Shown piece by piece: positions 4,734-41,400 of a DNA stretch of 64,000 bases (positions are counted from its first letter, which is position 1; the number at the start of each line of letters is the position of its first letter). Source of the DNA: Kiritimatiellia bacterium (GTDB lineage: Bacteria > Verrucomicrobiota > Kiritimatiellia > CAIQIC01 > Lenti-01); contig JAQUJC010000007.1 in NCBI GenBank assembly GCA_028681135.1, positions 57-64,056 of the forward strand, read 5' to 3'. Made by a program: the position numbers and the translations under genes. The notes beneath the pieces were generated by a model, which made no database searches, was not told where the DNA came from, and saw nothing but the letters and a program-made list of their open reading frames with translations.

Positions 4734-5684
4734 ATGAAAACGATTGCTCTTATAGGATGCGGACGCATTCTGAATCGCCACATTGAAGCCATTGCCGCGA
4801 ATCCCGGGCTAGAAATTGCCCTCGTGTGCGACAAGGACGAGGCGAAAGCCCGGGCGGCGGCCGAGCGACTGGGGGTGCCTTTTTTGACGAATTACCGTCA
4901 AATCCGGGGAGTGGATATCGTCGCGGTGCTGACACCGTCGGGGTTGCATCCGCGCCACGTATCCAATGTGGCGGAGCTGACAGATGCCGCCTATATTGTG
5001 TGTGAAAAGCCGCTGTCGCTGACCTTGCGCGAAGCCTACGAGGTCTACCGGCGGGTGCACAAGGCCGGCAAAGTCCTGCTGCCCGTTTATCAGAACCGTT
5101 ACAATCCGCTCGTGGCCCATGTGAAGGAGCTGATCGACAGTGGGCGGCTGGGGGCCATTCATCAATTCATCTGCAATGTGCTTTGGAACCGCAACAACGA
5201 CTATTTCAAGATCGACTGGCATGGGACGGCAGAATTTGATGGCGGCGTGCTGTACACCCAGGCCAGTCACTATGTCGACATGCTGCACCACTTCTTCGGC
5301 GAGGTGGAATCGCACAAAGGCGAGGGCGGGGCCCTGCGCGGATTGCAAGTGTTTGACAGTGTCTCCGCCGTCCTACGCTTTCGCTCCGGCACCGTGGGCA
5401 CGCTCAACGCCACCGTTGACGTCTACGAGAAAAACTTTGCGACAGAATTTACCCTGATCGCGGAAAAGGGGACTATCCGCCTGTCGGGCACCAACCTCAA
5501 CCAAATCGACTTCTGGAATGTGCAGGGCCTGGAGAAGCCGGACATGGATTTCAAACTCGACCATCAGTACGGCAAGGGGCACGACACGCTCTATAAGTAT
5601 ATTGTGGAGGAGCAATGGGACATGTTCCCGTCGAAAGAAGATGTGCTGTCGGGGATTCGGCTGATGGAAATGCTGTCGTATTAG
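4734..5684 (+). CDS. Gfo/Idh/MocA-family NAD(P)-dependent sugar oxidoreductase (WbpB-like)
   Basis: N-terminal Rossmann segment 'MKTIALIGCGRILNRHIEAIAANPGLEIALVCDKD', 316 aa, followed by a hexapeptide acetyltransferase as in the WbpB-WbpD arrangement. Confidence 0.8.
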   Translation: MKTIALIGCGRILNRHIEAIAANPGLEIALVCDKDEAKARAAAERLGVPFLTNYRQIRGVDIVAVLTPSGLHPRHVSNVAELTDAAYIVCEKPLSLTLREAYEVYRRVHKAGKVLLPVYQNRYNPLVAHVKELIDSGRLGAIHQFICNVLWNRNNDYFKIDWHGTAEFDGGVLYTQASHYVDMLHHFFGEVESHKGEGGALRGLQVFDSVSAVLRFRSGTVGTLNATVDVYEKNFATEFTLIAEKGTIRLSGTNLNQIDFWNVQGLEKPDMDFKLDHQYGKGHDTLYKYIVEEQWDMFPSKEDVLSGIRLMEMLSY

Positions 5685-5795
5685 TTGTTGGTGGGTGGTT
5701 GTTGGTGGGTGGTTGTTGGTGGCCGGTAGCCGGTGGCCGGTAGCCGGTGGTCGGTGGTCGGTGGTCGGTAGCCGGTAGCCGGTGGTCAGTAGTCA
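5685..5795. repeat. Heptanucleotide tandem repeat (~16 units, pattern TNGNNGG: TTGTTGG/TGGGTGG/TGGCCGG/TAGCCGG/TGGTCGG...)
   Basis: Seen directly in the sequence between the oxidoreductase stop and the four-helix-bundle gene. It is G/T-rich on the + strand with a 7-nt period, so it is not a coding period. Confidence 0.85.
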
Positions 5796-5841
5796 GAGGA
5801 CTGAGAGCGGGAGACAGTGGGTAGTAAAAGAAGAGGCAGGG

Positions 5842-6225
5842 ATGCTAGCAAAATCGGCAAAAGACTTACGCGTTTACCAGCAGGCCTATTCCACCGCCAT
5901 GGAAATATTTGAGTTCAGCAAAAAATGGCCCAAGGAGGAGAAATACTCGTTAATCGATCAGATCAGGCGATCATCCAGATCCGTCTGTGCGAATCTGCGC
6001 GAAGCGTGGTGCAAAAGACGCTATGAGGCTCATTTTAAGAGCAAACTCACCGATGTAGATGCTGAAAATAGCGAGACTGACACTTGGTTAGATTTTGCGA
6101 AAGACTGCGGCTATCTCGATGCACCGACACACCAACGTCTTGTTGAGCAATGCCGTGCCGTCGGGAAAATGACCGGCGCCATGCTTCATTCCGCCAAGTC
6201 ATTCACACCACATTCAGATCATTGA
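5842..6225 (+). CDS. Four-helix-bundle protein (TIGR02436-type, '23S rRNA intervening-sequence protein' family)
   Basis: 128 aa from Met at 5842: 'MLAKSAKDLRVYQQAYSTAMEIFEFSKKWPKEEKYSLIDQIRRSSRSVCANLREAWCKRRYEAHFKSKL...'. This is the characteristic family signature. The gene is inserted between the oxidoreductase and the acetyltransferase. Confidence 0.75.
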   Translation: MLAKSAKDLRVYQQAYSTAMEIFEFSKKWPKEEKYSLIDQIRRSSRSVCANLREAWCKRRYEAHFKSKLTDVDAENSETDTWLDFAKDCGYLDAPTHQRLVEQCRAVGKMTGAMLHSAKSFTPHSDH

Positions 6226-6277
6226 CTTCTGACCACCGACTACTGCTCACCGACCACGGGCCATTGGACCCCATGCT

Positions 6278-6985
6278 ATGAAAAACATAATACCGACCCC
6301 CAACCACCAACCACCAACGGCTTTCTTCAAACACGAATCGGCCTACGTTGACGACGGCGCCCAAATTGGCGCGGGGACGAAGATTTGGCACTTCAGCCAC
6401 ATCATGAAGGGGGCAACGATTGGGGAGCGCTGTGTGTTTGGCCAGAACGTGAACGTCGATGGCGGTGTCATCATTGGCAGCAATGTGAAGGTGCAGAACA
6501 ACGTCTCGATCTATACGGGGACAGTCATTGAGGATGATGTTTTCCTCGGTCCCTCCTGTGTGCTGACCAATGTGACCAATCCCCGCAGCCAGGTGAATCG
6601 TCACAGCCTGTACGAAAAAACGCTTATCCGCCGCGGTGCCACCATCGGGGCCAATGCCACGATCGTGTGCGGCGTGACTCTCGGCCGCTACTGTTTCATT
6701 GCTGCGGGTAGCGTGGTGACCAAAGATGTTCCAGATTATGGTCTCGTGATGGGCAACCCCGCCCGCCAAAAGGGGTGGATGAGCCGCCACGGCCACATCC
6801 TCCGGCCACATCCTCCGGCCTCAACCAACAACCAGCAACCAACAACCATCATGGTGTGCCCCGAATCCGGCTTCCGCTACCAACTCACCGACGGCGTGAT
6901 GCGCTGTCTCGATCTGGACGAGGAATGTCCACTGCCGCCGGACCTGTCCCGCGGAAGCCAGTCCTATACGTCACTCAAACGCTGA
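6278..6985 (+). CDS. Left-handed beta-helix (hexapeptide) N-acetyltransferase, WbpD/PglD-like, with C-terminal Trm112-like zinc-ribbon tail
   Basis: Hexapeptide repeats 'GAQIGAGTKIWHFSHIMKGATIGERCVFGQNVNVDGGVIIGSNVKVQNNVSIYTGTVIEDDVFLGPSCVL', then 'GNPARQKGWMSRHGH'. The tail 'MVCPESGFRYQLTDGVMRCLD' resembles a CPxG...C zinc ribbon. Confidence 0.8.
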   Translation: MKNIIPTPNHQPPTAFFKHESAYVDDGAQIGAGTKIWHFSHIMKGATIGERCVFGQNVNVDGGVIIGSNVKVQNNVSIYTGTVIEDDVFLGPSCVLTNVTNPRSQVNRHSLYEKTLIRRGATIGANATIVCGVTLGRYCFIAAGSVVTKDVPDYGLVMGNPARQKGWMSRHGHILRPHPPASTNNQQPTTIMVCPESGFRYQLTDGVMRCLDLDEECPLPPDLSRGSQSYTSLKR

Positions 6986-7014
6986 CTCTCTATCTGTTTT
7001 CGCCGCCGTTAGCT

Positions 7015-8607: not shown

Positions 8608-9156
8608 ATGAAAATTCGTTCAATTGTTATCCGCAGTTTCAAAGCAATGCGGTATCTATGGCCTTGGTTTCTTTTCGCTCGTTTTACACGGCCAATACCG
8701 CCCGGATTATGGTTGGCTAATGGGTTCCTACAACGAGTTCTCCGTATCGGGGGGAAGATACCATGGATGGTCCATTATACATCCTATGTAAGTGGCCATA
8801 TCCAAATCGGGGAAAATGTGTGGAAATCATTTGCGTTGAGCGGGGGGTGCTATATGCAAGGGCGTAATGGGATTTATTTGGGTGACAACGTGTTATTTGC
8901 GCCAGGCGTGAAAATAATTTCCGCCAACCATGATCCTCGGGATATGGCGACTTGGCTGCCGTCCCCACCGATCCGGATTGGTCACCGATGTTGGATTGGA
9001 GTGAATGCGGTCATTCTGCCCGGGGTAGAATTGGGGGACGAGTGTATTGTCGGAGCGGGTGCAGTTGTAACTCAGAGTTTCCCGACAGGTAGCATCATTG
9101 CGGGTGTTCCGGCAAAGACCATCGGATTCAACACGTCAGGGAAAACAAAACAGTGA
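8608..9156 (+). CDS. Hexapeptide-repeat O-acetyltransferase (WcaF / maltose O-acetyltransferase-like)
   Basis: 'NVLFAPGVKIISANHDP...IRIGHRCWIGVNAVILPGVELGDECIVGAGAVVTQSFPTGSIIAGVPAKTI' is a WcaF-like left-handed beta-helix. The stop overlaps the start of the next gene. Confidence 0.7.
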   Translation: MKIRSIVIRSFKAMRYLWPWFLFARFTRPIPPGLWLANGFLQRVLRIGGKIPWMVHYTSYVSGHIQIGENVWKSFALSGGCYMQGRNGIYLGDNVLFAPGVKIISANHDPRDMATWLPSPPIRIGHRCWIGVNAVILPGVELGDECIVGAGAVVTQSFPTGSIIAGVPAKTIGFNTSGKTKQ

Positions 9157-10232
9157 AGATCGTCACCATCGTCGGAGCCCGACCCCAGTTTATTAAGGCT
9201 GCGGCGGTGAGTCGAGTGCTCCGCCAGGATGTTCGCGAAGTTCTCGTTCATACCGGCCAACACTATGATGACAACATGTCACAGGTGTTTTTCGACGAAC
9301 TCGAGATTCCACGGCCGGACTACAACTTGGGCATCGGTTCCGGCGGCCATGGGGTGCAGACCGGCGCCATGCTGGCGGGCATCGAGGAGATTTTGCTGAA
9401 GGAGAAGCCGGACCGGGTGCTGGTCTATGGCGACACAAATTCGACGCTGGCGGGAACGCTGGCGGCGGCGAAATTGCATATCCCGGTGGCGCACGTGGAA
9501 GCGGGGTTGCGCAGCTTCAACCGGCGTATGCCGGAGGAAATCAACCGGGTGTTGACGGATCATGTGGCCGATCTTCTGTTTTGTCCCAGCAAGACGGCGG
9601 TTGCTAATCTGACTGCGGAGGGGGTGCATGACGGCGTTCATCTGGTGGGCGATGTGATGTACGAGGCACTGATGCATGCCGTTACCCTCGCACATCAAAA
9701 ATCCGATGTGCTGGAGCGCCTAAACCTAACGCCGAGCAGCTATGCGTTGGCGACCATCCACCGTGCCGAGAACACCGATGATCCGGAACGACTGGCCCGG
9801 TTGATGGCGGCCTTGCAGGAGGTTTCCTGCAAAATGCCGGTGATTTTCCCGGTCCATCCGCGGACGCGCGGCAAACTCGGGCCTTTGGCTGCCGGCGGGG
9901 ACTTGCGCTTGTTAGACCCCCAGGGCTATCTGGATATGGTCCGTCTGGAGGCAGGAGCATCCGTCATCCTGACCGACTCCGGCGGCATCCAAAAAGAGGC
10001 CTATTGGCTGCGAGTGCCGTGCGTGACCTTGCGCGACGAAACGGAGTGGGTCGAAACCGTGGCACAGGGATGGAATGTGGTGGCGGGAGCGGATTGCGAT
10101 GTAATCTTAGGCGCCGCCCGGCAGCCCGTTCGTCCGAAGACGCGCGACGATGCCTACCGGGGCGAAGGCAGTGTGATGCGGTTGACCGCAATTTTGGCCG
10201 GGAATGCCGGAGCGGGGGGGGGGGGCGAATAA
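9153..10232 (+). CDS. wecB: UDP-N-acetylglucosamine 2-epimerase (non-hydrolysing)
   Basis: 'MKIVTIVGARPQFIKAAAVSRVL...VHTGQHYDDNMSQVFFDELEIPRPDYNLGIGSG...DRVLVYGDTNSTLAG...HVEAGLRSFNRRMPEEINR' are canonical WecB/MnaA motifs. There is a G12 tract at 10214-10225 at the 3' end. Confidence 0.85.
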   Translation: MKIVTIVGARPQFIKAAAVSRVLRQDVREVLVHTGQHYDDNMSQVFFDELEIPRPDYNLGIGSGGHGVQTGAMLAGIEEILLKEKPDRVLVYGDTNSTLAGTLAAAKLHIPVAHVEAGLRSFNRRMPEEINRVLTDHVADLLFCPSKTAVANLTAEGVHDGVHLVGDVMYEALMHAVTLAHQKSDVLERLNLTPSSYALATIHRAENTDDPERLARLMAALQEVSCKMPVIFPVHPRTRGKLGPLAAGGDLRLLDPQGYLDMVRLEAGASVILTDSGGIQKEAYWLRVPCVTLRDETEWVETVAQGWNVVAGADCDVILGAARQPVRPKTRDDAYRGEGSVMRLTAILAGNAGAGGGGE

Positions 10233-30251: not shown

Positions 30252-31433
30252 ATGAAGAATCCAAGGATATTTCTTTCTCCGCCGCACATGAGTGGGCGGG
30301 AGCAGGCGTTTGTGAAGCAGGCGTTTGAGTCGAACTATATCGCGCCGCTGGGGCCCATGGTGGATGCTTTTGAAAAAGAGTTTGCGGAGGTTACGGGCAT
30401 TCCGCATTGCCTCGCGTTGGCCAGCGGTACCGCGGCCACTCATCTGGCGCTGCGTCATCTGGGGGTGGGGCCGGGCGATGAAGTGTTGGCCTCCACCTTG
30501 ACGTTTATCGGCAGCGTGACGCCGGTGATGTTCCAGGGTGCCACTCCGGTGTTCCTTGACTGCGATGAAGAAAGCTGGAACATGGACCCGGTGCTGCTGG
30601 AGCGGGCGTTGGACGATGCCGCCCAGCGTGGAAAAACACCCAAGGCGGTGATTCCCACCGATCTCTATGGCCAACCCTGTGAGCTGCCGCGAATACGGGC
30701 CCTCTGCGACCGTCATGGCGTACCGGTGTTATGTGATTCGGCGGAAGCGATGGGAGCGAAATATCGGGAGCCAGAGAGCAAATATCCAATATCCAACGGG
30801 ACCTCGGACCCCTGGCGGCACGCCGGTGCCGACGCGTGGGCATCGGTGTTTTCGTTCAACGGCAACAAAATCATCACGACCTCAGGCGGCGGGATGCTGG
30901 CTTCGCACGATCGGGAACTGATGGATCATGCCCGCAAGCTATCGCAGCAGGCGCGGGACCCGCTGCCGTGGTATGAGCACACTGAAATCGGATTCAATTA
31001 CCGCCTGAGTAATATCCTGGCGGCCATTGGACTCGGCCAGCTTGAAGTGCTGGAGGAACGGGTGCGTCGCCGGCGGGAGATTTTTGATGGCTATCGCCAA
31101 CGTCTGGGGGATGTGCCGGGCGTCTCCTTTATGCCCGAACCCGCCACCTGCCAGAGTAACCGTTGGCTTACGGTTGTGTTGATCGATCCTGTAGCCTTCG
31201 GGGCGGATACTAATGCAGTGCGCATCGCGCTCGAAGCAGAGAACATTGAAGCGCGGCCCGTATGGAAGCCCATGCATCTTCAACCCGTATTTAAGGGCTG
31301 CCGGTTTTGGGAAAGCGAGCAGGGCATTAGCGAGAAGCTATTTGATCAGGGCTTGTGCCTGCCCTCCGGGACGGCGATGACGGATACCGACCTTGACCGA
31401 GTGTGCGGGATTGTCCAAAAACTTCATGCCTGA
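30252..31433 (+). CDS. DegT/DnrJ/EryC1/StrS-family PLP-dependent sugar aminotransferase (PglE/WbpE-like)
   Basis: 'FESNYIAPLGPMVDAFEKEFAEVTGIPHCLALASGTAATHLAL...SFNGNKIITTSGGGML' includes the Lys-containing PLP motif region. Confidence 0.85.
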   Translation: MKNPRIFLSPPHMSGREQAFVKQAFESNYIAPLGPMVDAFEKEFAEVTGIPHCLALASGTAATHLALRHLGVGPGDEVLASTLTFIGSVTPVMFQGATPVFLDCDEESWNMDPVLLERALDDAAQRGKTPKAVIPTDLYGQPCELPRIRALCDRHGVPVLCDSAEAMGAKYREPESKYPISNGTSDPWRHAGADAWASVFSFNGNKIITTSGGGMLASHDRELMDHARKLSQQARDPLPWYEHTEIGFNYRLSNILAAIGLGQLEVLEERVRRRREIFDGYRQRLGDVPGVSFMPEPATCQSNRWLTVVLIDPVAFGADTNAVRIALEAENIEARPVWKPMHLQPVFKGCRFWESEQGISEKLFDQGLCLPSGTAMTDTDLDRVCGIVQKLHA

Positions 31434-31995: not shown

Positions 31996-33897
31996 ATGCT
32001 TCAGCAATTCAAAAATCGTAATTTTTACATTATTTTGGTGGGCGACGTGGTCTTGTTCGCCGCGTCGCTGATCTTGGCCTATGGCTTGCGGTTTTCGCTG
32101 GAGATTCCGGGGTCGGAATGGCGTCAAATCGTTCTGCTGCTGCCGTGGCTGCTGATCATCAAAGTAGCTGTTTTTTATGCGATGGGGGTGTATCGCGGCA
32201 TGTGGCGCTATACCAGCGTGCCGGATGCGATTCGGTTGACCAAGGCGTCCATTATCGCGACGCTTGCTATCATGACGGCGCTGACCCTTGTCCATCAGTT
32301 TAAGGGCTTCTCGCGTTCCGTTTTTCTGGCGGATTGCATTTTTACCGTCTTTTTCTGTAGCGGTTCCCGACTGATCATTCGCGTGTTGAGCACAAAAAAG
32401 CGCGGTGGCTTAAAGTTTTGGGACCGGGAAGACGAAGACAGCCTGCCAGTTCGGCATGTGCGGCTCTTGATCATCGGGGCGGGGGATGCTGCGGCCAGCA
32501 TCATCCGGGAAATCCAGGGCAACCCCCATTCGCCCTACGATGTGGTGGCGTGCATCGATGACGATCTGCGCAAGCATGGACAGACCCTGCTTGAGGTGCC
32601 CGTGCGCGCGCCGATCGAGCGCCTGCTTTTTTATGTGAACCGGTTCCAGGTGGACGAAATCCTGATTGCGATGCCGTCGGTGGTGGGGGAAACCATGCGG
32701 CAGATTGTGAGTGCCTGCAAGGCGAGCGGCCTGCCGTTTAAGACCCTGCCCTCGCTGGGGTCACTGGTGGATGGCAAAGTCACAGTCAATGATGTCCGTA
32801 ATGTAGAGTACGAGGATATTCTAGGGCGTTCGCCGGTGCAGTTGGACCATGCCGGGATTGGCCGGTGCCTGACCGGGAAAACCGTGGCGGTGACCGGGGC
32901 GGGGGGGTCTATTGGATCGGAGCTGTGTCGCCAGATTCTGCGATTCAATCCGGCGGTGTTAGTGTTGATTGAGTCCAGCGAATTCAATTTGCACCAGATC
33001 GAGCAGGAACTGCGGCGCGAGAGCCGCTTCGAAGGGTTGCGCACCGTCCTGGGGCGGGTGCAGGATCGCGTGCTGATGGCCAATGTGTTCGACCGCTACC
33101 GGCCTCAGGTGGTGTTTCATGCGGCAGCGTGCAAGCATGTGCCGATTGTGGAATTGAATCGACGCGAGGGGATTCTGAATAATGTCCTCGGCAGCTTGAC
33201 CCTGATGGACGTGGCTGAGGAGTATGGCGTCGAACGCTTTGTGCAGGTCTCCACCGACAAGGCGGTGCGGCCGACAAACGTGATGGGTGCCAGCAAGCGT
33301 GTGGTGGAAATGGCCCTGCAGGCGCGAGTGCCGGGCAAGACGCGATTCATGGCCGTGCGCTTTGGCAACGTGCTGGGTTCCTCGGGATCGGTTATCCCGC
33401 TCTTCCAACGGCAGATTCAGACCGGGGGGCCCGTCACGGTGACCCATCCGGATATCACCCGCTATTTCATGATGATTCCCGAGGCCTGTCAGTTGATTCT
33501 ACAGGCGGGGGCCATGGGCGAGGGAGGCGAAATCTTCATTTTGGAGATGGGCACACCCGTCAAGATTGCCGACATGGCGCGTGATATGATCCGGCTGTCC
33601 GGCAAGGTGCCGGAGCAGGACATCCAGATCGTTTATACCGGATTGCGCCCCGGCGAGAAGCTCCACGAAGAACTGATCACCCAGGGCGAGGGCATCGTGG
33701 CGACCGCCCATGAAAAGATCATGGTGCTCCGGCGCGATGGGCCCGCCGCAACGGATGCCGATTCGGATCGGCGGATTCGCGCTCAGATCGACCGCCTGGT
33801 GCAAACGGCAGACACGTTCGATGCCGGGCAGGTTAAGGATACCTTGCAAGACATCGTGCCGGAATATCTCCCGGAGTTGCCCGCGGCGGGGTCATGA
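31996..33897 (+). CDS. Membrane-bound UDP-GlcNAc 4,6-dehydratase (PglF/CapD/WbpM family)
   Basis: 633 aa from the ATG at 31996, with 4 N-terminal TM helices. 'VTGAGGSIGSELCRQIL' is a Rossmann motif. 'VSTDKAVRPTNVMGASKRVVE' matches the YxxxK region (here MGASK), and 'RFGNVLGSSGSVIP' follows. Confidence 0.85.
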   Translation: MLQQFKNRNFYIILVGDVVLFAASLILAYGLRFSLEIPGSEWRQIVLLLPWLLIIKVAVFYAMGVYRGMWRYTSVPDAIRLTKASIIATLAIMTALTLVHQFKGFSRSVFLADCIFTVFFCSGSRLIIRVLSTKKRGGLKFWDREDEDSLPVRHVRLLIIGAGDAAASIIREIQGNPHSPYDVVACIDDDLRKHGQTLLEVPVRAPIERLLFYVNRFQVDEILIAMPSVVGETMRQIVSACKASGLPFKTLPSLGSLVDGKVTVNDVRNVEYEDILGRSPVQLDHAGIGRCLTGKTVAVTGAGGSIGSELCRQILRFNPAVLVLIESSEFNLHQIEQELRRESRFEGLRTVLGRVQDRVLMANVFDRYRPQVVFHAAACKHVPIVELNRREGILNNVLGSLTLMDVAEEYGVERFVQVSTDKAVRPTNVMGASKRVVEMALQARVPGKTRFMAVRFGNVLGSSGSVIPLFQRQIQTGGPVTVTHPDITRYFMMIPEACQLILQAGAMGEGGEIFILEMGTPVKIADMARDMIRLSGKVPEQDIQIVYTGLRPGEKLHEELITQGEGIVATAHEKIMVLRRDGPAATDADSDRRIRAQIDRLVQTADTFDAGQVKDTLQDIVPEYLPELPAAGS

Positions 33898-35315
33898 CCC
33901 CCGACACCCTCAGCAACTATTGGCGCCGACGCTCACAGGTGTCCGCTTGTCGCGAGGGGGACAACCTCATTCTGTTCGATCCGGATTCCGGCCGCGAAAA
34001 AACAATCAATCATGCGGGATATGCCGTGTGGGAGGCCATGGATGGCTCTCGCCAAACCCAGGAACTGGCCCGTGCACTGGCCCGGCGTTACGACTTGGCC
34101 GTGACGGACGCCATTCGCTCCGATGCCACGGCTTTTGCCGAAGAACTCCTCCGTGATGGTTACGCGGAAACCCTGGAAGTACCTGCAGAGGTGGCCTTGC
34201 CGCCCGACGCCTATTCCTGGCTGCGCGAAGCGCCGCGCAATTTCGATGTGTCGCTGACCGGACGATGCAACCTGCGCTGCGCCTATTGCTTCTATGCCGA
34301 CGAAATGGTGGGGCGCCGTGACTTGCCGGGAGAACGCTGGCAGGTATTTTTTGCCGAGTTAAAAACGCTGGCGGTCCGGGGGCTGACTCTCAGCGGCGGC
34401 GAAGTCTTCATGCGGCCGGACCTATGGGAGTTGGTCGATGCGCTGATCGACGCGCGCATGCGCTACAGCCTGTTGACAAACGGCACGTTGATCACCGATG
34501 CCACTCTGGATGCCCTCGGGTCGGCGCGTCGCCGACAGCGGCTGGACTCGATCCAGGTGTCCATCGATGGCTCCTGCGCGGCGGTACATGACGCCTCGCG
34601 GGGGGTGGGCAGCTTTGACAAAGCCATTCGAGGGTTGCGCCTGTTGCAAGAAGCCGGGGTGCCCGTGACCGCCCGCATCACGGTGAATCAGCACAATGTC
34701 GGCGATCTGGAAAATACGGTGGGGTTGCTGCTGGACGACGTTGGTTTGGCCGGGATTGGCACCAACGACGCCATGCCCATGGGGACGGGATGCGCCCATC
34801 GCAACGACGTGGTGCTCACGCCCGGACAGCGCGTAACCGCGATGGAAACGCTGGTGCGTCTGGAGCAGCGGTATCCGGGCCGCATTCAGGCCACGGCGGG
34901 GTCCCTGGCGTTGTGGCACATGTTCCGGGAAATGGAGGAGGCGAAAGCCACCGGGGTGAAGACCCAGCGCTGGAAAATGGGATTCCTCTCTTCTTGCGGC
35001 TGCATGTTCTGCAAGTTGGCGGTACACCATGATGGCATGATTGTGCCTTGCAACATGCTGGCGTCGGCATCGTTGGGAACCATTGGTGAGACGCCGGTAC
35101 GTTCCATCTGGCAGGATCATCCGTTGCTGCAAGAGATGCGCAGTCGCCGAAATATCCCAATGGAGCAGGTGCCCGGCTGTGAAGACTGCGAATGGGCACC
35201 CTATTGCAACGGGGGCTGCCCTGCCGCCGAGCATGCCCGAATCGGCGATATGAACGTGGCGAATCCCGAGTGCTGCTACCGGCGGTTTCTCAATGAGTGT
35301 GGCGAGTTGCCTTGA
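33894..35315 (+). CDS. Radical SAM/SPASM-domain enzyme with fused N-terminal PqqD/RRE-like domain (RiPP-maturase-like)
   Basis: N-terminal ~95 aa 'GDNLILFDPDSGREKTINHAGYAVWEAMDGSRQTQELARALARRYDLAVTDAIRSDATAFAEELLRDGYAE' has the PqqD-family pattern. 'LTGRCNLRCAYCFY' is the CxxxCxxC motif. The C-terminal Cys-rich SPASM region is 'CGCMFCKLAVHHDGMIVPCN...CEDCEWAPYCNGGCPA'. Confidence 0.8.
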   Translation: MTPDTLSNYWRRRSQVSACREGDNLILFDPDSGREKTINHAGYAVWEAMDGSRQTQELARALARRYDLAVTDAIRSDATAFAEELLRDGYAETLEVPAEVALPPDAYSWLREAPRNFDVSLTGRCNLRCAYCFYADEMVGRRDLPGERWQVFFAELKTLAVRGLTLSGGEVFMRPDLWELVDALIDARMRYSLLTNGTLITDATLDALGSARRRQRLDSIQVSIDGSCAAVHDASRGVGSFDKAIRGLRLLQEAGVPVTARITVNQHNVGDLENTVGLLLDDVGLAGIGTNDAMPMGTGCAHRNDVVLTPGQRVTAMETLVRLEQRYPGRIQATAGSLALWHMFREMEEAKATGVKTQRWKMGFLSSCGCMFCKLAVHHDGMIVPCNMLASASLGTIGETPVRSIWQDHPLLQEMRSRRNIPMEQVPGCEDCEWAPYCNGGCPAAEHARIGDMNVANPECCYRRFLNECGELP

Positions 35316-35917
35316 AAGCAAAATCTGAATATCCAATATCCAATACCCAATCATCATGGGGCAATCTGCGGTTTGCGCTCCGTACGGATGTCGTACTTGA
35401 GCATTTTGGTGAACGCTCATTGGCGCTGCTGTGCCATGCCCTTAAACTGTGCGAAATCAACGCGTCGGGGCAGCAGATGCTGGCGCGTCTTGACGGGAAG
35501 CGAACGGTGCAGGATATTGCCGATGAACTCGGCTTGCCGCCTCAGGCGATTAGTGAGCCGTTGATGGAGATGGAGCAGCAGGGGGTCGTGCGCCGCGTGG
35601 TGAGTTTGAGTAAAGAAAGGTACGGGAACATGAGTGAAGCAAGATACCTGGCCGATCCGGACGTGTCGTTCCGGCAGGAAGACAACGATGGCGGGCTGCT
35701 CTACAATGCCGAAACGGATACGCTGGAAGTGATCAACCCCGTCGCAGTGGAAATCTGGAAATTCTTGGCGGCACCGCAGACCCAGGCAGACGTCGTGGCG
35801 CATCTGCACCAGGCTTGCGAGGGCGTCCCTCATGACCAAGTGGCAGCGGATGTGGCTGAATTTCTCGATGGCATGGTCCAAAAGGGATTCATCGGTGTGA
35901 TCGAGGAGTCTGTCTAA
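35297..35917 (+). CDS. Stand-alone protein with two tandem PqqD-like (RRE/peptide-chaperone-like) domains
   Basis: Domain 1 is 'VLEHFGERSLALLCHALKLCEINASGQQMLARLDGKRTVQDIADELGLP...EMEQQGVV'. Domain 2 is 'LLYNAETDTLEVINPVAVEIWKFLAAPQTQADVVAHLHQACEGVPHDQVAADVAEFLDGMVQKGFI'. The start is uncertain because the ORF overlaps the upstream gene by 19 nt. Confidence 0.6.
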   Translation: MWRVALKAKSEYPISNTQSSWGNLRFALRTDVVLEHFGERSLALLCHALKLCEINASGQQMLARLDGKRTVQDIADELGLPPQAISEPLMEMEQQGVVRRVVSLSKERYGNMSEARYLADPDVSFRQEDNDGGLLYNAETDTLEVINPVAVEIWKFLAAPQTQADVVAHLHQACEGVPHDQVAADVAEFLDGMVQKGFIGVIEESV

Positions 35918-37080
35918 TGGGGGCGGCGGGGCCTTGCGATGGGCAGACAGACCTCCCAACCATGCCGGTGGTGGACATGCCCCCGGATGTCCCGGCACTC
36001 AGGACCTTCTACCTCTATCTCTCCGCGGGCTGTAATCTGCATTGTCAGCATTGCTGGATCACCCCGACCTTTGTGCACGGCAAACCGGTGCCGGGTGATT
36101 GCCTCGAATTGCGCCTGCTGCAGGCGGCGGTAGAGGAAGCCCGCCCGTTGGGGCTGTCGGCCGCCAAACTCACCGGCGGTGAGCCCCTGTTGCATCCGGA
36201 TTTCCGGCGCGTGGTCGACTATCTGACCGCACAGGAGTTGGAACTTTCCATGGAAACCAACGCAACGCTGATCGACCGCGAGTTGGCCGTGCATCTCGTC
36301 AAACACACCACGTTGAAGCGAGTTGCGGTCAGTCTGGACAGCCCCGTGGAGCAGGATCATGACCGCTTTCGCGGGAAACCCGGGGCCTTTCGGGAAGCCG
36401 TCCGTGGAATTGAGCATTTGGTGGCGGCCGGGATGCATCCGCAAATCATCATGTCGGTCTATCGTGGCAACCTGAAGCAGATCGACGGCTTGATCGAATT
36501 GGCCATGAAACTGGGCGCGAGTTCGGTCAAGTTCAATCCGATAACAAAATCGGGGCGGGGGGCGGAGATGCACCGGCAGGGGCAGGGGCTGGACTTCGAT
36601 GCGCATATCGCACTGATACGGCACATTCGCGGCCCGCTGCAGGACCGCTATCCCATATATCTCAGTGCGATGGTGCCCCCGGCCATGTCCACCGTGAAGG
36701 AACTCCTGCGCTATGGCGGGGAGGGGGCGGGCTGCCATGTGCGCCATATCCTGGGAATTTTGGGAACAGGGGAAATGGCTCTGTGCGGCATCGGACGCAG
36801 CATCCCGGAGCTGTGTTTTGGCCGACTGGGGCAGGACAGTCTGCGCGAAGCCTGGATGACCCATCCCGTGCTGGTCCAGATGCGCAAGGATATGAAGGGC
36901 CCGTTCCCCGGCGTGTGCGGCGATTGCCTGCATGTCGGCCGCTGCCTGACCCATTGCCTGGCACAAAATTATGAAGCCAACGGTAAGCTGGTGTCGCCCT
37001 CGCCACTGTGCGCGGAAGCCGTACGGCGTGGCGTTTTTCCTGATACACGGCGGATTTCGTGGTCGAGTGGTGAGTGGTGA
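35917..37080 (+). CDS. Radical SAM/SPASM-domain enzyme (second maturase-like protein, no fused RRE)
   Basis: 'YLYLSAGCNLHCQHCW' is the radical-SAM cluster motif. The C-terminal SPASM-like region is 'CHVRHILGILGTGEMALCGIG...GVCGDCLHVGRCLTHC'. The 3' end runs into the heptanucleotide repeat. Confidence 0.8.
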   Translation: MGAAGPCDGQTDLPTMPVVDMPPDVPALRTFYLYLSAGCNLHCQHCWITPTFVHGKPVPGDCLELRLLQAAVEEARPLGLSAAKLTGGEPLLHPDFRRVVDYLTAQELELSMETNATLIDRELAVHLVKHTTLKRVAVSLDSPVEQDHDRFRGKPGAFREAVRGIEHLVAAGMHPQIIMSVYRGNLKQIDGLIELAMKLGASSVKFNPITKSGRGAEMHRQGQGLDFDAHIALIRHIRGPLQDRYPIYLSAMVPPAMSTVKELLRYGGEGAGCHVRHILGILGTGEMALCGIGRSIPELCFGRLGQDSLREAWMTHPVLVQMRKDMKGPFPGVCGDCLHVGRCLTHCLAQNYEANGKLVSPSPLCAEAVRRGVFPDTRRISWSSGEW

Positions 37081-37149
37081 GTAGTGAGTCGTGAGTAGTG
37101 AGTGGGGAGTGGGGAGTGGTGAGTGGTGAGTCGTGAGTGGGGAGTAGGG
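37063..37149. repeat. Heptanucleotide tandem repeat (~12 units, TNGNGAG: TGGTGAG/TAGTGAG/TCGTGAG/TGGGGAG)
   Basis: Seen directly in the sequence. It overlaps the last codons of the rSAM gene and ends ~27 nt before the second four-helix-bundle gene. On the minus strand it generates the spurious low-complexity ORFs 'SPLTTHHSPL...'. Confidence 0.85.
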
Positions 37150-37175
37150 AAGAACGATACGAGTGGAGGTGACAG

Positions 37176-37511
37176 ATGGCGGGGAATAGCGAGACGCATT
37201 CGCAGAACTTTGAAACCCTTGACTGTTGGAAAGCGTGCCGAGAATTACGGTTGTTTGTGGTGAAACAAGTTGTTCCTGTTTTGCCGCTTGAAGAAAAATA
37301 CAGGTTGGCGGACCAGTTGATCCGTGCAGGCCGATCCACGACGGCCAACATCGCGGAGGGTGATGGACGATTCCATTATCAGGATAATGCCAAGTTCTGT
37401 CGAAATGCCCGTGGCTCAAGCAAAGAAGTTCTCGACCACTTGATCACGGCTTACGACGAAGGTCTCCTAGAGGTGGACACCCTACTGCAAGGGCGTATAT
37501 TAGTTGAGTGA
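37176..37511 (+). CDS. Four-helix-bundle protein (TIGR02436-type), second copy
   Basis: 'CWKACRELRLFVVKQVVPVLPLEEKYRLADQLIRAGRSTTANIAEGDGRFHYQDNAKFCRNARGSSKEVLDHL' is the family signature. It is ~30% identical to the copy at 5842. Confidence 0.75.
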   Translation: MAGNSETHSQNFETLDCWKACRELRLFVVKQVVPVLPLEEKYRLADQLIRAGRSTTANIAEGDGRFHYQDNAKFCRNARGSSKEVLDHLITAYDEGLLEVDTLLQGRILVE

Positions 37512-38179
37512 GCCGTCAAACTGTTGAGCGCATACATTCGATATCTGACCCAAGCCAAGCGGGATTCCACGTCTTGACCATTCCCCACTCCCTACTCGAC
37601 CACTCCCCGGCTTTAGGTCTCTTCCTTCATGCCTCGGCCGTGGCAGTGAATGGCGGGGCCATCCTCTTTCTCGGCCATTCCACGGCGGGCAAAAGCACGA
37701 TCGCGCGGCTGACGGGAACGGCGCATCCGGTGCTGGCCGATGATTCGGTGTTTGTCTCCCCGGGGGGAGACGGGGCCTGGCGGGTTGTCGATGGCAGTTT
37801 TCGCTTCGGGCGGGACGAGGTGCCAGACTTTCAAAACAAAATCCGTCGCCGTGCCGCAGGGGAGGGGGCCGTGCCGTTGCGAGGCTGCTTTCGAATCCAC
37901 AAGGCCGCAGCGACGCGAATCGAACCGCTGGCTCCGATTGATTTGGCACGATATTTAATGGATGCCGTCATGGAAGTCGACCTCCAGCGCAAAGGGCTCG
38001 GAGTCCGGGACTCAACTCAGTCGTTGCGGGAGCTTCATCGGGGAATCCTAGAATCACGAAAGGCCTGGTTTAGTCAGGTCGCTGCCATCGCAAGGTCTGT
38101 TCGCGGATGGCATTTATGGTTTCCTCTGGATTTGGGTATTCAGCAATGGAATCGCCTACTCGTTGAGACCTTGTCCTGA
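37508..38179 (+). CDS. HprK-related (HPr kinase C-terminal-domain-like) P-loop kinase
   Basis: 'LFLHASAVAVNGGAILFLGHSTAGKSTIARL' matches the HprK C-domain P-loop context (GxSGxGKS-type). 223 aa. Starts with GTG overlapping the upstream stop. The assignment is from the motif only. Confidence 0.5.
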   Translation: MSRQTVERIHSISDPSQAGFHVLTIPHSLLDHSPALGLFLHASAVAVNGGAILFLGHSTAGKSTIARLTGTAHPVLADDSVFVSPGGDGAWRVVDGSFRFGRDEVPDFQNKIRRRAAGEGAVPLRGCFRIHKAAATRIEPLAPIDLARYLMDAVMEVDLQRKGLGVRDSTQSLRELHRGILESRKAWFSQVAAIARSVRGWHLWFPLDLGIQQWNRLLVETLS

Positions 38180-38413: not shown

Positions 38414-41400
38414 ATGAAACATTTACGCTCAAGCCAGTATCGGAATGGCTGTCGGTCGGTGCCAACAGCCTGTGGCCGCGTGCTGAGTCGCGTGCGTCGG
38501 CAGCGCGATGCGGGCGTCGGTCTTGTCGTGTTGGTTCTCTGCGGGCTGGGGGCAGTGGGCGCACAGGCGCAGGTGCAGTCGATCGCGGGAATCACCGTCA
38601 CATATCAGACCGTCGCCAATACTAACCAGAATTATTCAACGCAGGGCGGCGGCAGTTCTAGTTTCCCAGCCGACACAACGTATAACATCCGTTTCAATGA
38701 GGGGTCGTCGAACCATATGTACCTCGCGGAGGTCATGGTTGGCGGGCGCACGTTCGACAGTATCGCGCTGGCGGGACAGATCAACATTGCCCGGTCATCA
38801 AGGGCGGCAATCACGGGGGCGCACCATATCGTGCTCTACGAACAGGCGTCTGTTTCCGGTACAAACCTCTTGTTGAAATCCAGCTATGCGGCGACGATGG
38901 AAGAGTCGTTGCGCAGTGCGATGATCAACCACGGGGCTGACAACGTATTTTCGGATCAGGGCGATGGCAACGGGAACAACAACAACATTCAGCGCATCGA
39001 CTATCTGTTCCCTGACGGCCTGCCGGTGCACAGCCACATTGAGCAGCGCGGGTTCCTAGTGATGGATCGTGGGGGAAACGACCGGTTCAAGATTGCGGCG
39101 GTCACGGCGCTGGACGCCAATGGAAAGCCCGCGGGTTTCGGGCCGGTGGTCAGTGTGCTGGAGACGCAGTGGGGGACCTCCGGCATCACCCTGGACACGA
39201 TCGTGATGCGGGGCTATACCGAGGACGGCGACGTTCAGCATCCGTCGGCCAGCCTGGGGTCTCAGCCGCTCTCAGGCGTTTTTCTGAGTTGGCAGGCATT
39301 GGGGTTGAAGACCAACGATTTGATTTATGGCTATGCGCTGGCGGCCAACGACGCAACCACGAATGGGGCGTATTGGACGCAAACCGATAATCCGGCCTAT
39401 TTCCCTATCAACACGTCGCCGTCTTCGACGTATGGCGGCCTGGACCTGATCAGCGGGGGGTTGATGTTCTATGACGAGGAGCTGAACGTGACGCTAGGCG
39501 ACCGGGCCTGGGAGGACCTTAACGCCAATGGCCTTCAGGACGCAGGGGAGCCGGGGCTTTCCAATGTGCTGGTGCACGTCTATGACAGCGTCAGCAATCT
39601 GGCGGCCGTGGTCCGCACTGATACCAATGGCGTGTGGAGGTCGCCGGGACACGGCCCGGGCGCCTATTTCGCGACCTATGTCTGTCCAGAGGGGTATCAA
39701 TTCACAACGCGTTATGCCGGGACCAACTCGGCGATCGACAGCAATGCTGACCCGCTCACGGGTCAAACGGCGGTATACCCGATGAGCAACGGGCAGACCA
39801 ACCTGACACTGGACGCAGGGTTTTACCGTCTGGCCTCGCTGGGCGATCTCACGTGGGAAGACAGCAATGTCGATGGGCAGCAGGACATCGGCGAGCCGGG
39901 CCTTGGGGGTGTAGTGGTGCGGTTGTACGACGCGATGTCCAACGTGATTGCCACGAGCACCTCGTCGATGGTGGGGGCTTATGCTTTCAATGATGTGCGG
40001 CCGGGGACGTATTCCGTGGGCTTCACGGCCCCCGCGGGGTATCAGTTCACGGCGGCGGATATCGGCAACGACGCCACGGACAGCGATGCGGATCTGGCCA
40101 CCGGCGAGACGGTGCCCATCACGCTGACGAGCGGACAGACGAACCTCTCCGTGGATGCGGGGTTCTACCAGCCGGTATCCCTGGGGGATTTCACGTGGGT
40201 GGACACGAATGGAAACGGACAGCAGGATGCCGGGGAGCCGGGACTGGCGGGTGTGGTGGTGCGGCTGTATGACGCGGCCTCGAACGTGACCGCCACGACG
40301 ACCTCGTCGGTGGCGGGGGCCTACGCTTTTACGGATCTGTTGCCGGGTTCGTATTCCGTGGGTTTTACGGCTCCTGCGGGCTATCAACTTACCACGGCGA
40401 ATGCGGGTAATGATGCCACAGACAGCGATGCCCATCCGGCCACTGGCCGGACCGGAACCTATGCGCTGCTGAGCGGCCAGGCCAACACCACCGTGGACGC
40501 GGGGTTCTGCCGTCCGGCGAGCCTGGGGGATTTCACCTGGCTCGATAACAACTTCAACGGACAGCAGGATGCCGGTGAGCCGGGCCTACCCGGTATGGTC
40601 GTTCGGTTGTACAATGCGGCGTCCAATGTGATGGGCACGACGACGTCGTCGGTGGCGGGGGCCTATGCCTTCTCGAATTTGTTGCCGGGAACATATTTTG
40701 TCGGGTTCACGGTTCCAGTGGGCTATCAACTCACCACGGCGAATGCGGGCAACGACGCTACAGACAGCGATGCTAACCCGGCCACTGGGTGGACCGGGAC
40801 TTATGTGCTCACGAATGGCCAGGCGAACACCACCGTGGATGCGGGGTTCTACAGTTCAGGCAGCACCGGCTTGAGACTCTACAAATCGAGCAGCGTGACC
40901 GGCAACTGGAATCTGGACGACACCAATGCCTATTACATCACGATTCAAAACACCGGGACGGTAGCCCTGACGGGTATCGATCTGAGCGATCTGCTGCCGG
41001 GCGGCGTGAGCTTTGTGGAGGGCAGTGCCCAGATCGTCCAACTGCTGTCGCAGACCACCATGCCGTTCACGGAAACGGTTTCGGACAATTTCGGGACGGT
41101 TTCGTACGGCAACAATGACGGGATTGTCAACTGGTTGGGGAATTGGATCGAAACAGGCGATGATGGGTCCGCCGCGAGCGGCAACGTGCTGGTGCAGTCC
41201 GGGGCGTTGGTGTTCCAGGATCGCAATGCGCGCAACGATACTGTCACCCGCACCCACCGCCGCTCGACAGCTACAAACCGGGTGTATACGAACTCCGTGC
41301 TGAGTTTTTCCTATCGGCGCATCAACTGGGACTGGAATGACAGCATGGAGATATCTGTTTCCACCAACGGGTTTGCTGGCCAGTCCGATTTGGTCTACAC

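Follow-up and report, generated by a model that had tools for sequence, protein, structure and literature searches.

Short tandem-repeat arrays form inverted arms around four-helix-bundle genes at operon junctions in a Kiritimatiellia genome: a candidate selfish cassette resembling rRNA intervening sequences

We analyzed a 64,000-nucleotide stretch of DNA (hereafter, the window) from a Kiritimatiellia bacterium of the Verrucomicrobiota (assembly GCA_028681135.1, contig JAQUJC010000007.1, positions 57 to 64,056), in which two genes for small four-helix-bundle (4HB) proteins lie between genes of a sugar operon and of a peptide-modification operon, each beside an array of short tandem repeats. 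An initial annotation of this DNA had noticed about 16 heptamers of the form TNGNNGG between an oxidoreductase stop codon and a TIGR02436-type 4HB gene, as well as a second such arrangement, and had suggested either a small mobile or selfish cassette or a structured regulatory leader. Here, we describe the two units, their counterparts in other genomes, and the explanations that can be offered for them. All window features below are on the + strand.

The first unit occupies positions 5685-6318. Its upstream host gene (4734-5684), recognized by Pfam as a Gfo/Idh/MocA oxidoreductase, is a WbpB-like UDP-2-acetamido-2-deoxyglucuronate dehydrogenase, a name carried in JGI and NCBI by a 100% identical protein (P0121). 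Right after its TAG stop codon (5682-5684) come 16 consecutive heptamers (5685-5796), 14 of which are exactly TNGNNGG and the last two of which have A at position 6, so the tract is as first annotated. It divides into an outer 5' arm of five TTGTTGG/TGGGTGG units (5685-5719) and an inner 5' arm of 11 units (5720-5796; TGGCCGG, TAGCCGG, TGGTCGG and others, ending in TAGTCAG). A leader follows (5797-5841), with a purine-rich, Shine-Dalgarno-like AAGAGG 6-11 nt ahead of the ATG, and then the 4HB gene (5842-6225), whose 127-residue product we call p1. Directly behind it, the inner 3' arm (6226-6263; CTGACCA CCGACTA CTGCTCA CCGACCA and onward) is the reverse complement of 5720-5796. The outer 3' arm (6291-6318; CCGACCC CCAACCA CCAACCA CCAAC) pairs with the outer 5' arm and lies within the open reading frame (ORF) of the downstream host gene, a hexapeptide-repeat (WbpD/WlbB-like) acetyltransferase (6278-6985) with its start codon between the inner and outer 3' arms.

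The unit therefore contains two nested arm pairs, the outer matching TTGTTGG/TGGGTGG with CCAACCA and the inner matching TGGTCGG/TAGCCGG with CCGACCA. The inner arms extend over 50 nt with 76% complementarity, and the outer 3' arm is 86% complementary to 5701-5728. Because a complementary C-rich array stands directly 3' of the ORF, the 4HB gene falls within the loop of an extended, imperfect hairpin, and RNA folding returned a single long stem (dG -256 kcal/mol, z = -6.3) that included the inner arms. The nesting reads as a newer cassette sitting inside older arms; the outer 5' arm appears to be left over from an earlier cassette whose type persists in the related locus L085 (arms of L085, L091 and L216: TTGGTCG/TTGATCG). 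On the coding strand of this unit, a promoter scan detected no sigma-70-like promoter, and there was no intrinsic terminator; no known RNA family was found in the unit and no rRNA match within 5500-7000.

The second unit (37059-37608) lies in a SynChlorMet (Scm) cassette at 33894-38179, which comprises an ScmE-like gene (33894-35315) and ScmF (35917-37080), the two radical SAM/SPASM genes of the cassette, together with a PqqD-like gene and an ScmC-like gene. The last five codons and the TGA stop of ScmF, the upstream host gene, lie inside the 5' arm (37059-37150), which has about 13 GTGAGTG/GTGAGTA/GGGAGTG units. The PF05635 gene behind it spans 37176-37577 in its original frame, with the original TGA stop at 37575-37577. 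An in-frame TGA at 37509-37511 (CGA in the related locus L225) shortens it to 111 amino acids (ORF 37176-37511), so that it covers profile positions 1-89 of 106, and read-through restores 104 of the 106. The 3' arm (37577-37608; ACCATTC CCCACTC CCTACTC GACCACT CCCC) is complementary to the 5' arm, and folding again gave a long stem (z = -3.0). The downstream gene encodes an ScmC-like protein (37574-38179), whose L225 orthologue was called from the same position and matches PF27840 ScmC; its start is likely a TTG overlapping the original 4HB stop (cTTGAcc). The recurrence that had been annotated is thus real, with a different heptamer.

TRF assigned period 7 to both window arrays (9.7 and 12.3 copies), and both are degenerate 7-nt tandem repeats at gene junctions, as are the heptanucleotide simple sequence repeats of the STRR, TAACTGA and GGGAATC type. 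A period-7 autocorrelation scan of all 64 kb returned two arrays of at least 35 nt, those of the two units, and tblastn found no 4HB genes in the window other than these two. With just two long arrays and two 4HB genes in 64 kb, their co-location is not attributable to chance.

We next consider the protein. The 4HB of the first unit scored 103.5 bits against PF05635 (cut-off 33.8; E 9e-30) and 95.1 bits against TIGR02436 (cut-off 24), in agreement with its first assignment, and that of the second unit scored 78 and 69.7 bits, both beyond the curated cut-offs. The AlphaFold2 model of p1 is a four-helix bundle (pLDDT 91.9). Foldseek matched this model to 2gsc (XCC0516; TM 0.85/0.92), 2rld (BT_0352; TM 0.76/0.88) and also 4dwl (Avd), and phmmer matched p1 to 2gsc (E 3e-5), XCC0516 being the best structural match; each of the three crystal entries contains five chains. 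The family motif has been given as GxxRxxxSxxxNxxE (PMC3936711), and p1 carries it as QIRRSSRSVCANLRE, that is, QxxRxxxSxxxNxxE, with Q rather than G at the first position, which we counted as a match. R43, N51 and E54 do not vary in the alignment, and S47 hardly does. The dN/dS of p1 against its 88% relative L001 was 0.087, indicating that p1 is functional and under purifying selection. Other copies (the second window unit, L086, L091 and L216) have decayed through nonsense or frameshift changes, as would be expected for a selfish gene decaying after landing. None of the three 4HB proteins searched matched the PADLOC defence-system models.

To trace the history of the first junction, we ordered its relatives by oxidoreductase identity to the window. 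The closest, L089 (95%), has a p1-type cassette as in the window. At 93%, the 4HB genes of L085-L088 belong to another subfamily, and their TTGGTCG/CGACCAA arms are similar to the outer arms of the window. L094 (88%) has yet another 4HB, the third, between CAGAGGC/TCTGGCC arms, and its acetyltransferase has a native start. Decayed copies remain in L091 and L216 (86% and 80%). The junction is empty in L220 (82%), with a stop, a 13-nt spacer, an ATG and an acetyltransferase of 218 aa, and in L219 (74%), with a 17-nt spacer and 217 aa. Thus, three kinds of 4HB gene, about 30% identical to one another and each with its own arms, have occupied one junction. All filled sites read TAG and then the array, whereas the empty sites have TGA or TAA; between the two states, stop, spacer and start have been replaced, with no target-site duplication. 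The empty WbpB junctions form no hairpin and, in a search for a target-site rule, showed no similarity to the arms.

Between the window and L089, identity is 98-100% over 5754-6293, and the flanks are a mosaic of 80-95%; cassette dS is 0.013, compared with 0.34 for the oxidoreductase and 0.81 for the acetyltransferase. Because the cassette is so much closer than its flanks, arms and ORF constitute a recently shared unit. Taken together, these loci show cassettes replaced or lost between close relatives, with the arms traveling with the ORF. Several further features were observed in these relatives. In L217 (3489-4568; 80% oxidoreductase identity), a decayed 4HB ORF is fused into the acetyltransferase as a single 359-aa gene call, and the same 400-nt sequence in L216 (3452-3851) has no gene called. 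In L089, two extra ORFs between the acetyltransferase and a flippase (5313-6057; 65 aa with a weak Rv0078B-like match, and 186 aa) are missing from the window.

The Scm junctions gave a similar picture. In L227, an 82% relative, ScmF and ScmC overlap by ATGA without a cassette, and L225, a 90% relative, has an intact 133-aa 4HB at the same place. L225 also carries a p1-type cassette at the neighboring ScmE|PqqD-like junction, where L227 is empty; at this junction the window has just a short AATATCC array (35326-35351, 3.4 copies) that is translated within the ORF 35297-35917, and another short AATATCC array lies at 30781-30796 (2.3 copies). At the empty ScmE junction the native sequence is GGACCTCGGACTTCGG, similar to the arm of the L225 cassette there; this is a single case, which may be microhomology or a scar. 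Empty orthologous junctions were thus found for both window units, which agrees with the earlier view of the 4HB genes as inserted passengers and indicates that they are not ancestral operon members.

Next, we scanned one genome per species and obtained 80 4HB loci in at least eight phyla, among them Desulfobacterota, Bacteroidota, Acidobacteriota, Chloroflexota, Verrucomicrobiota/Kiritimatiellota, Cyanobacteriota and Cloacimonadota. A period-7-type array was found within 300 nt of the 4HB gene at 56 of the 80 loci (32 on both sides, 12 upstream only and 12 downstream only), so that not just both window copies but most relatives in other genomes adjoin repeats, and the density of period-7 TRF rows by the 4HB gene was about 12-fold that of the flanks. 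A period-free test (Smith-Waterman score ≥30; controls 2.5 kb away) detected complementary flanks in 50/76 loci and in 0/73 control positions. Among two-armed loci, the downstream unit was the reverse complement of the upstream one in 33 of 36, each outscoring all shuffles.

Among 57 inverted array pairs, 37 enclose a 4HB gene, and where the loop is ORF-sized (369-540 nt) one lies inside in 31 of 33 cases. The remaining 20 pairs consist of 10 tight hairpins without an ORF (gaps 6-76 nt) and cross-pairs between neighboring arrays. No cargo other than 4HB was seen in the hairpin loops of the sampled loci, a sample biased toward 4HB. Units are mostly 7 nt long, but several Chloroflexota and Cyanobacteria have octamers, and periods of 6 or 13 (= 6+7) nt occur in Bacteroidota; the assumption of a strictly heptameric period was accordingly rejected. 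The 5' arm is G-rich in 43/49 informative arms (51 counted; p = 6e-8), and non-G-rich arms such as AACTGCA and GCGTAAA also exist. An inverted repeat reads the same on both strands, so this polarity is a property of the hairpin and not of ORF orientation; for the same reason, we dropped an attempt to deduce ORF orientation from G/C polarity. A role of the 5' arm as a three-frame stop was likewise not general, since all-frame stops occurred in 14/51 arms and in an equal number of 3' arms.

Arm sequence follows the 4HB clade (Mantel test, observed value reached in 0/500 permutations), and p1-clade ORFs bear RRRTCRG-like arms in Desulfobacterota, Verrucomicrobiota and Kiritimatiellia alike. The same architecture is present in isolate genomes and plasmids, including Desulfosarcina BuS5, Nostoc punctiforme, Tolypothrix and X. 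campestris (accessions CP087952, NC_010632 and NZ_CP050442 among them). In X. campestris, the supplement of Rehm et al. 2015 (PMC4692102) shows, without comment, that the start of XCC0516 overlaps GGGAATC repeat #15, next to accB. Some loci differ in layout. On the Oscillatoria nigro-viridis plasmid NC_019730 (L223, ~8981-9391), G-rich GGAGAGT-type arrays on both sides of the 4HB gene are direct rather than inverted, and L017 and L064 look similar. In Desulfosarcina sp. BuS5 (L002; CP087952, 939311-945688), the gene has a 3' array only and lies in an island with toxin-antitoxin genes (PhdYeFM/PIN, ParE-like), a PDDEXK_3 gene and transposases.

Within host operons, the 4HB gene points the same way as its upstream neighbor at 66/71 loci (p = 1e-5 against 0.72) and the same way as both neighbors at 49/65, and the upstream stop codon lies within the array or at most 8 nt before it at 34/54. 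At both window sites, the native junction was lost on insertion, and the gene ends were rebuilt from the arms. ScmF ends in RRISWSSGEW followed by its stop, compared with RRISWGGGKAGA and stop in the empty L227, and ScmC probably reads through the C-rich 3' arm (TIPHSLLDHSP) as a new N-terminus. In the first unit, the acetyltransferase ATG (6278) between the inner and outer 3' arms means that the outer 3' arm is translated (PTPNHQPPT); the protein gains about 10 repeat-coded residues, and its empty-site relatives begin MSDYFKHES or MDYFAHAS.

Repeats also occur in frame within the acetyltransferase itself. A 'satellite' array at 6822-6848 (CAACCAACAACCAG x2, coding STNNQQPTT) is 92% complementary to 5696-5720 in the outer 5' arm, and the site is hypervariable among relatives. 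Right before this CAACCAA array, 6790-6815 is a perfect 13-nt direct duplication (CGGCCACATCCTC x2, coding GHILRPHPP). Among relatives, the gene has three hypervariable in-frame repeat insertions, one of which is DRGQGTG x5 (21 nt = three heptamers). A 165-nt in-frame insertion in L094 (4981-5145) is hairpin-like, with a GACAGGG array and then a CCGACCA array translated as DRGQGTG repeats. In-frame arrays without any ORF were also found in the PqqD-like gene.

We regard it as probable, though well short of certain, that each unit is a promoter-less selfish cassette of the 23S rRNA intervening-sequence (IVS) kind, residing at gene junctions of protein operons. Such a cassette consists of a 5' arm of 6-8-nt units, a leader with a ribosome-binding site, an Avd-like 4HB ORF, and a 3' arm that is the reverse complement of the first. 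The comparisons above establish this anatomy and its generality, insertion and turnover, the linkage of arms to ORF, co-orientation, and the repair of gene ends. Read-through from the host operon would transcribe the cassette, whose arms would pair in the transcript into a 30-110-bp stem that, by analogy with the rRNA IVS, RNase III may cut; such cutting would allow the operon to tolerate the insertion. The pentameric 4HB protein may recognize the repeat arms, one unit per repeat period, and would be needed for spread. The mobile or selfish cassette of the initial annotation accordingly fared well, in view of three unrelated cassettes at one junction and a cassette more similar than its flanks. 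The notion of a structured upstream leader did not: the tract is half of an inverted pair with the ORF between its two arms, and G-richness is absent from many arms. As for the upstream 7-nt tract, the array is real, but it is just the 5' arm, and units of 6, 8 and 13 nt occur as well.

The closest described object to the window units is the ORF-carrying 23S rRNA IVS. In Coxiella, the IVS is a horizontally acquired element of 428 nt that has a stem of 28 bp at its termini, carries an S23p ORF and is excised by RNase III (PMC4990558). The window units share with the IVS of Leptospira and Coxiella burnetii a PF05635 protein in the loop, a comparable loop size (about 370-540 nt here), complementary termini forming a long stem around the ORF, a sporadic distribution with horizontal transfer and no recombinase of their own, and tolerance within an essential transcript. 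They differ in lying at gene junctions of mRNA operons rather than in helices 9, 25 or 45. Their arms are 6-8-nt tandem arrays of up to about 110 nt that can be nested, and the neighboring genes have taken over arm sequence for their stop codons and for N- or C-terminal codons. RNase III processing is a feature of the IVS, and the window units are known here from their sequence.

Several observations weigh against a selfish cassette of this kind. In the period-free test, about one third of the 4HB genes had no arms. Arrays vastly outnumber 4HB genes, which lay near 2 of the 87 GGTCGGT-type arrays with room for one; half of the GGTCGGT arrays lie in long open frames, and a GGTCGGT x3 array was rejected as a predictor of a 4HB gene. 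There is no transposase, integrase, reverse transcriptase or nuclease in or beside the cassette, with no search having been aimed at integrases, and mobility therefore rests on comparative evidence. Given the mosaic flanks, normal homologous recombination within a polysaccharide locus could account for the exchange. Arm mismatches comprise 29 G.U and 36 A.C; G.U is thus not in excess, and selection for a stem in the sense RNA has left no specific signature. Finally, the Coxiella study suggests that S23p is not made in vivo there (PMC4990558).

The alternative that survives best, which we nevertheless judge unlikely, is that the arrays are autonomous short-period repeats, comparable to cyanobacterial STRR, Beggiatoa TAACTGA or Xanthomonas GGGAATC, that seed and expand by themselves at junctions and in permissive coding loops, the 4HB gene being cargo that preferentially lands or survives in pre-existing hairpins. 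It stays alive because of the ratio of arrays to 4HB genes, which resembles that of REPs to RAYT genes. The tight hairpins without an ORF, the in-frame arrays without an ORF in the acetyltransferase and PqqD-like genes, and the position of the window cassette within older arms would all be in keeping with it, as would the finding that rRNA IVS elements take the place of existing helix tips (PMC4990558). However, it does not readily account for arm sequences that track the 4HB clade across phyla (RRRTCRG-like for the p1 type), for arms and ORF common to the window and L089 as one recently exchanged block, or for the lack of a hairpin at empty junctions.

A bolder proposal, to which we attach still less credence, would extend the selfish cassette into an unrecognized class of mobile elements with self-complementary 6-8-nt arrays as ends and the 4HB pentamer as their sequence-specific factor. 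Orphan heptamer repeats (STRR, TAACTGA, GGGAATC, including those translated in genes) would then be ORF-less derivatives, in the manner of REPs and RAYTs. The G-rich strand runs 5' to 3' toward the loop on both sides, and this polarity fits arrays made by reiterative, telomerase- or reverse transcriptase-like 3'-end synthesis on either side of a break; arrays from ordinary slippage would not obviously show it.

We consider it improbable that the 4HB gene is a vertically inherited accessory gene whose repeats act as a regulatory leader or insulator (a G-quadruplex, attenuator or mRNA stabilizer). The arrays do sit in the would-be 5' UTR, the protein is under purifying selection, and the same junction is occupied in several relatives. 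This reading is contradicted by the empty junctions at both sites; different 4HB genes of about 30% identity at one junction, pseudogenized copies, and the unrelated hosts, which include polysaccharide, SynChlorMet and cas loci (PMC3936711) and accB in Xanthomonas, also count against it. A G-quadruplex leader was rejected: the window tracts have GG runs compatible with a two-tetrad motif, as do 17/45 upstream arms in other genomes, but no four GGG runs, and the canonical G3 motif occurs in 0/45 of those arms.

It is very unlikely that the 4HB protein is the Avd of a diversity-generating retroelement (DGR) with the repeats as template and variable repeats (TR and VR). Homology between PF05635 and Avd has been described (PMC10053308), the folds are homologous and pentameric in crystals (2gsc, 2rld, 4dwl), and the 4HB of the first unit weakly matches bAvd (PF22296, 41 bits) and DivGenRetAVD (NF033474). 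The latter score, 40.5 bits, is far under the equivalog cut-off of 80. The immediate neighbors are sugar enzymes and enzymes of peptides that are ribosomally synthesized and then post-translationally modified (RiPPs), with no reverse transcriptase, TR or VR nearby, and the repeats are inverted 7-nt tandem arrays rather than a ~100-nt TR/VR pair with A-specific differences.

That faulty assembly or binning of metagenomic contigs produced the arrays, as the many homologues on ~1-kb contigs ending in repeat might suggest, can be set aside, because the same architecture recurs in complete isolate genomes and plasmids (CP087952, NC_010632, NZ_CP050442, X. campestris) and in independent assemblies of one lineage. 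Close 4HB homologues lie mostly on contigs of ~0.5-1.5 kb, and L001 stops 16 nt upstream of the ATG. Short-read assembly probably fails at the repeat arms, a possible reason for these short contigs, and the 4HB context would then be under-sampled in metagenomes.

The selfish cassette also invites comparison with other known elements. Heptanucleotide repeats have been described as STRR in cyanobacteria, as TAACTGA in Beggiatoaceae, Cyanobacteria and Bacteroidetes (PMC4679880) and as GGGAATC in Xanthomonas and GGGGAYT in Nostoc (PMC4692102). Like these, the arrays described here are degenerate tandem heptamers, mostly at junctions and often ending at a start or stop codon, are translated when in 'reverse' orientation, frequently form convergent inverted pairs (70-75 in Xanthomonas), and are spread patchily across phyla with no known mechanism. 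The difference is the specific ORF family in the loop of the inverted pairs; the main texts of PMC4692102 and PMC4679880 tie no gene family to the repeats, and the terms 'helix bundle', 'S23' and 'intervening' were not found in them. With REP/RAYT systems (REPtrons), the cassettes have in common that inverted copies of a short repeat stand on either side of a gene and that the repeat is also dispersed without the ORF, in a similar ratio of few genes to many repeats. Unlike RAYTs, the 4HB protein lacks a catalytic fold, whether of the Y1-transposase or another type; in place of single palindromes there are tandem arrays with a 6-8-nt period, and a relation between protein and repeat is hypothetical.

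Integron cassettes are likewise promoter-less single ORFs, co-directional behind host transcription, with an imperfect palindromic boundary and replaceable at a fixed site. In contrast to them, the palindrome here brackets the ORF rather than following it, and insertion occurs at ordinary junctions genome-wide. No integrase or attI was noticed, the immediate neighbors being biosynthetic, though the window was not searched for an integrase. Finally, miniature inverted-repeat transposable elements and insertion sequences are not a match, as there is no target-site duplication and the ORF is not a transposase.

PF05635 genes have already been described in cas loci (PMC3936711) and in rRNA insertions of the candidate phyla radiation (PMC11270868). 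Two published cases (PMC3936711, PMC5524665) look like cassette-type junction insertions: a 'CRISPR-associated' 4HB, for example between cmr3 and cmr2 in Pleurocapsa PCC 7327, and a 'phage element' 4HB between gmk and nadD in Flavobacterium columnare. A link between the PF05635 family and short tandem repeats, or the operon cassette architecture, was not found in full-text searches of an open-access library; absence from that library is no proof that nobody has reported it.

Two questions of long standing may have a common answer. One concerns rRNA intervening sequences that carry an ORF, known since 1993, whose origin and mobility are unexplained; the other concerns tandem heptanucleotide repeats, reported since 1990 in cyanobacteria, Xanthomonas, Beggiatoa and Bacteroidetes with "no mechanism evident". 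The present data tie both to one architecture and to one very large family, with thousands of members, that is homologous to Avd. The 4HB genes in cas, polysaccharide and RiPP operons are probably hitchhikers and not pathway components, while the cassettes rewrite the termini of neighboring proteins and add variable in-frame peptide repeats. Cultivable test systems are available in XCC0516, BT_0352 and the Nostoc plasmids.

Repeats of another kind lie just downstream of the Scm cassette in the window. A giant ORF of 3130 aa (38414-47806) contains a 342-nt tandem repeat x3 and a 216-nt repeat of about two copies (39810-40852 and 46655-47096), which presumably correspond to repeated extracellular domains.

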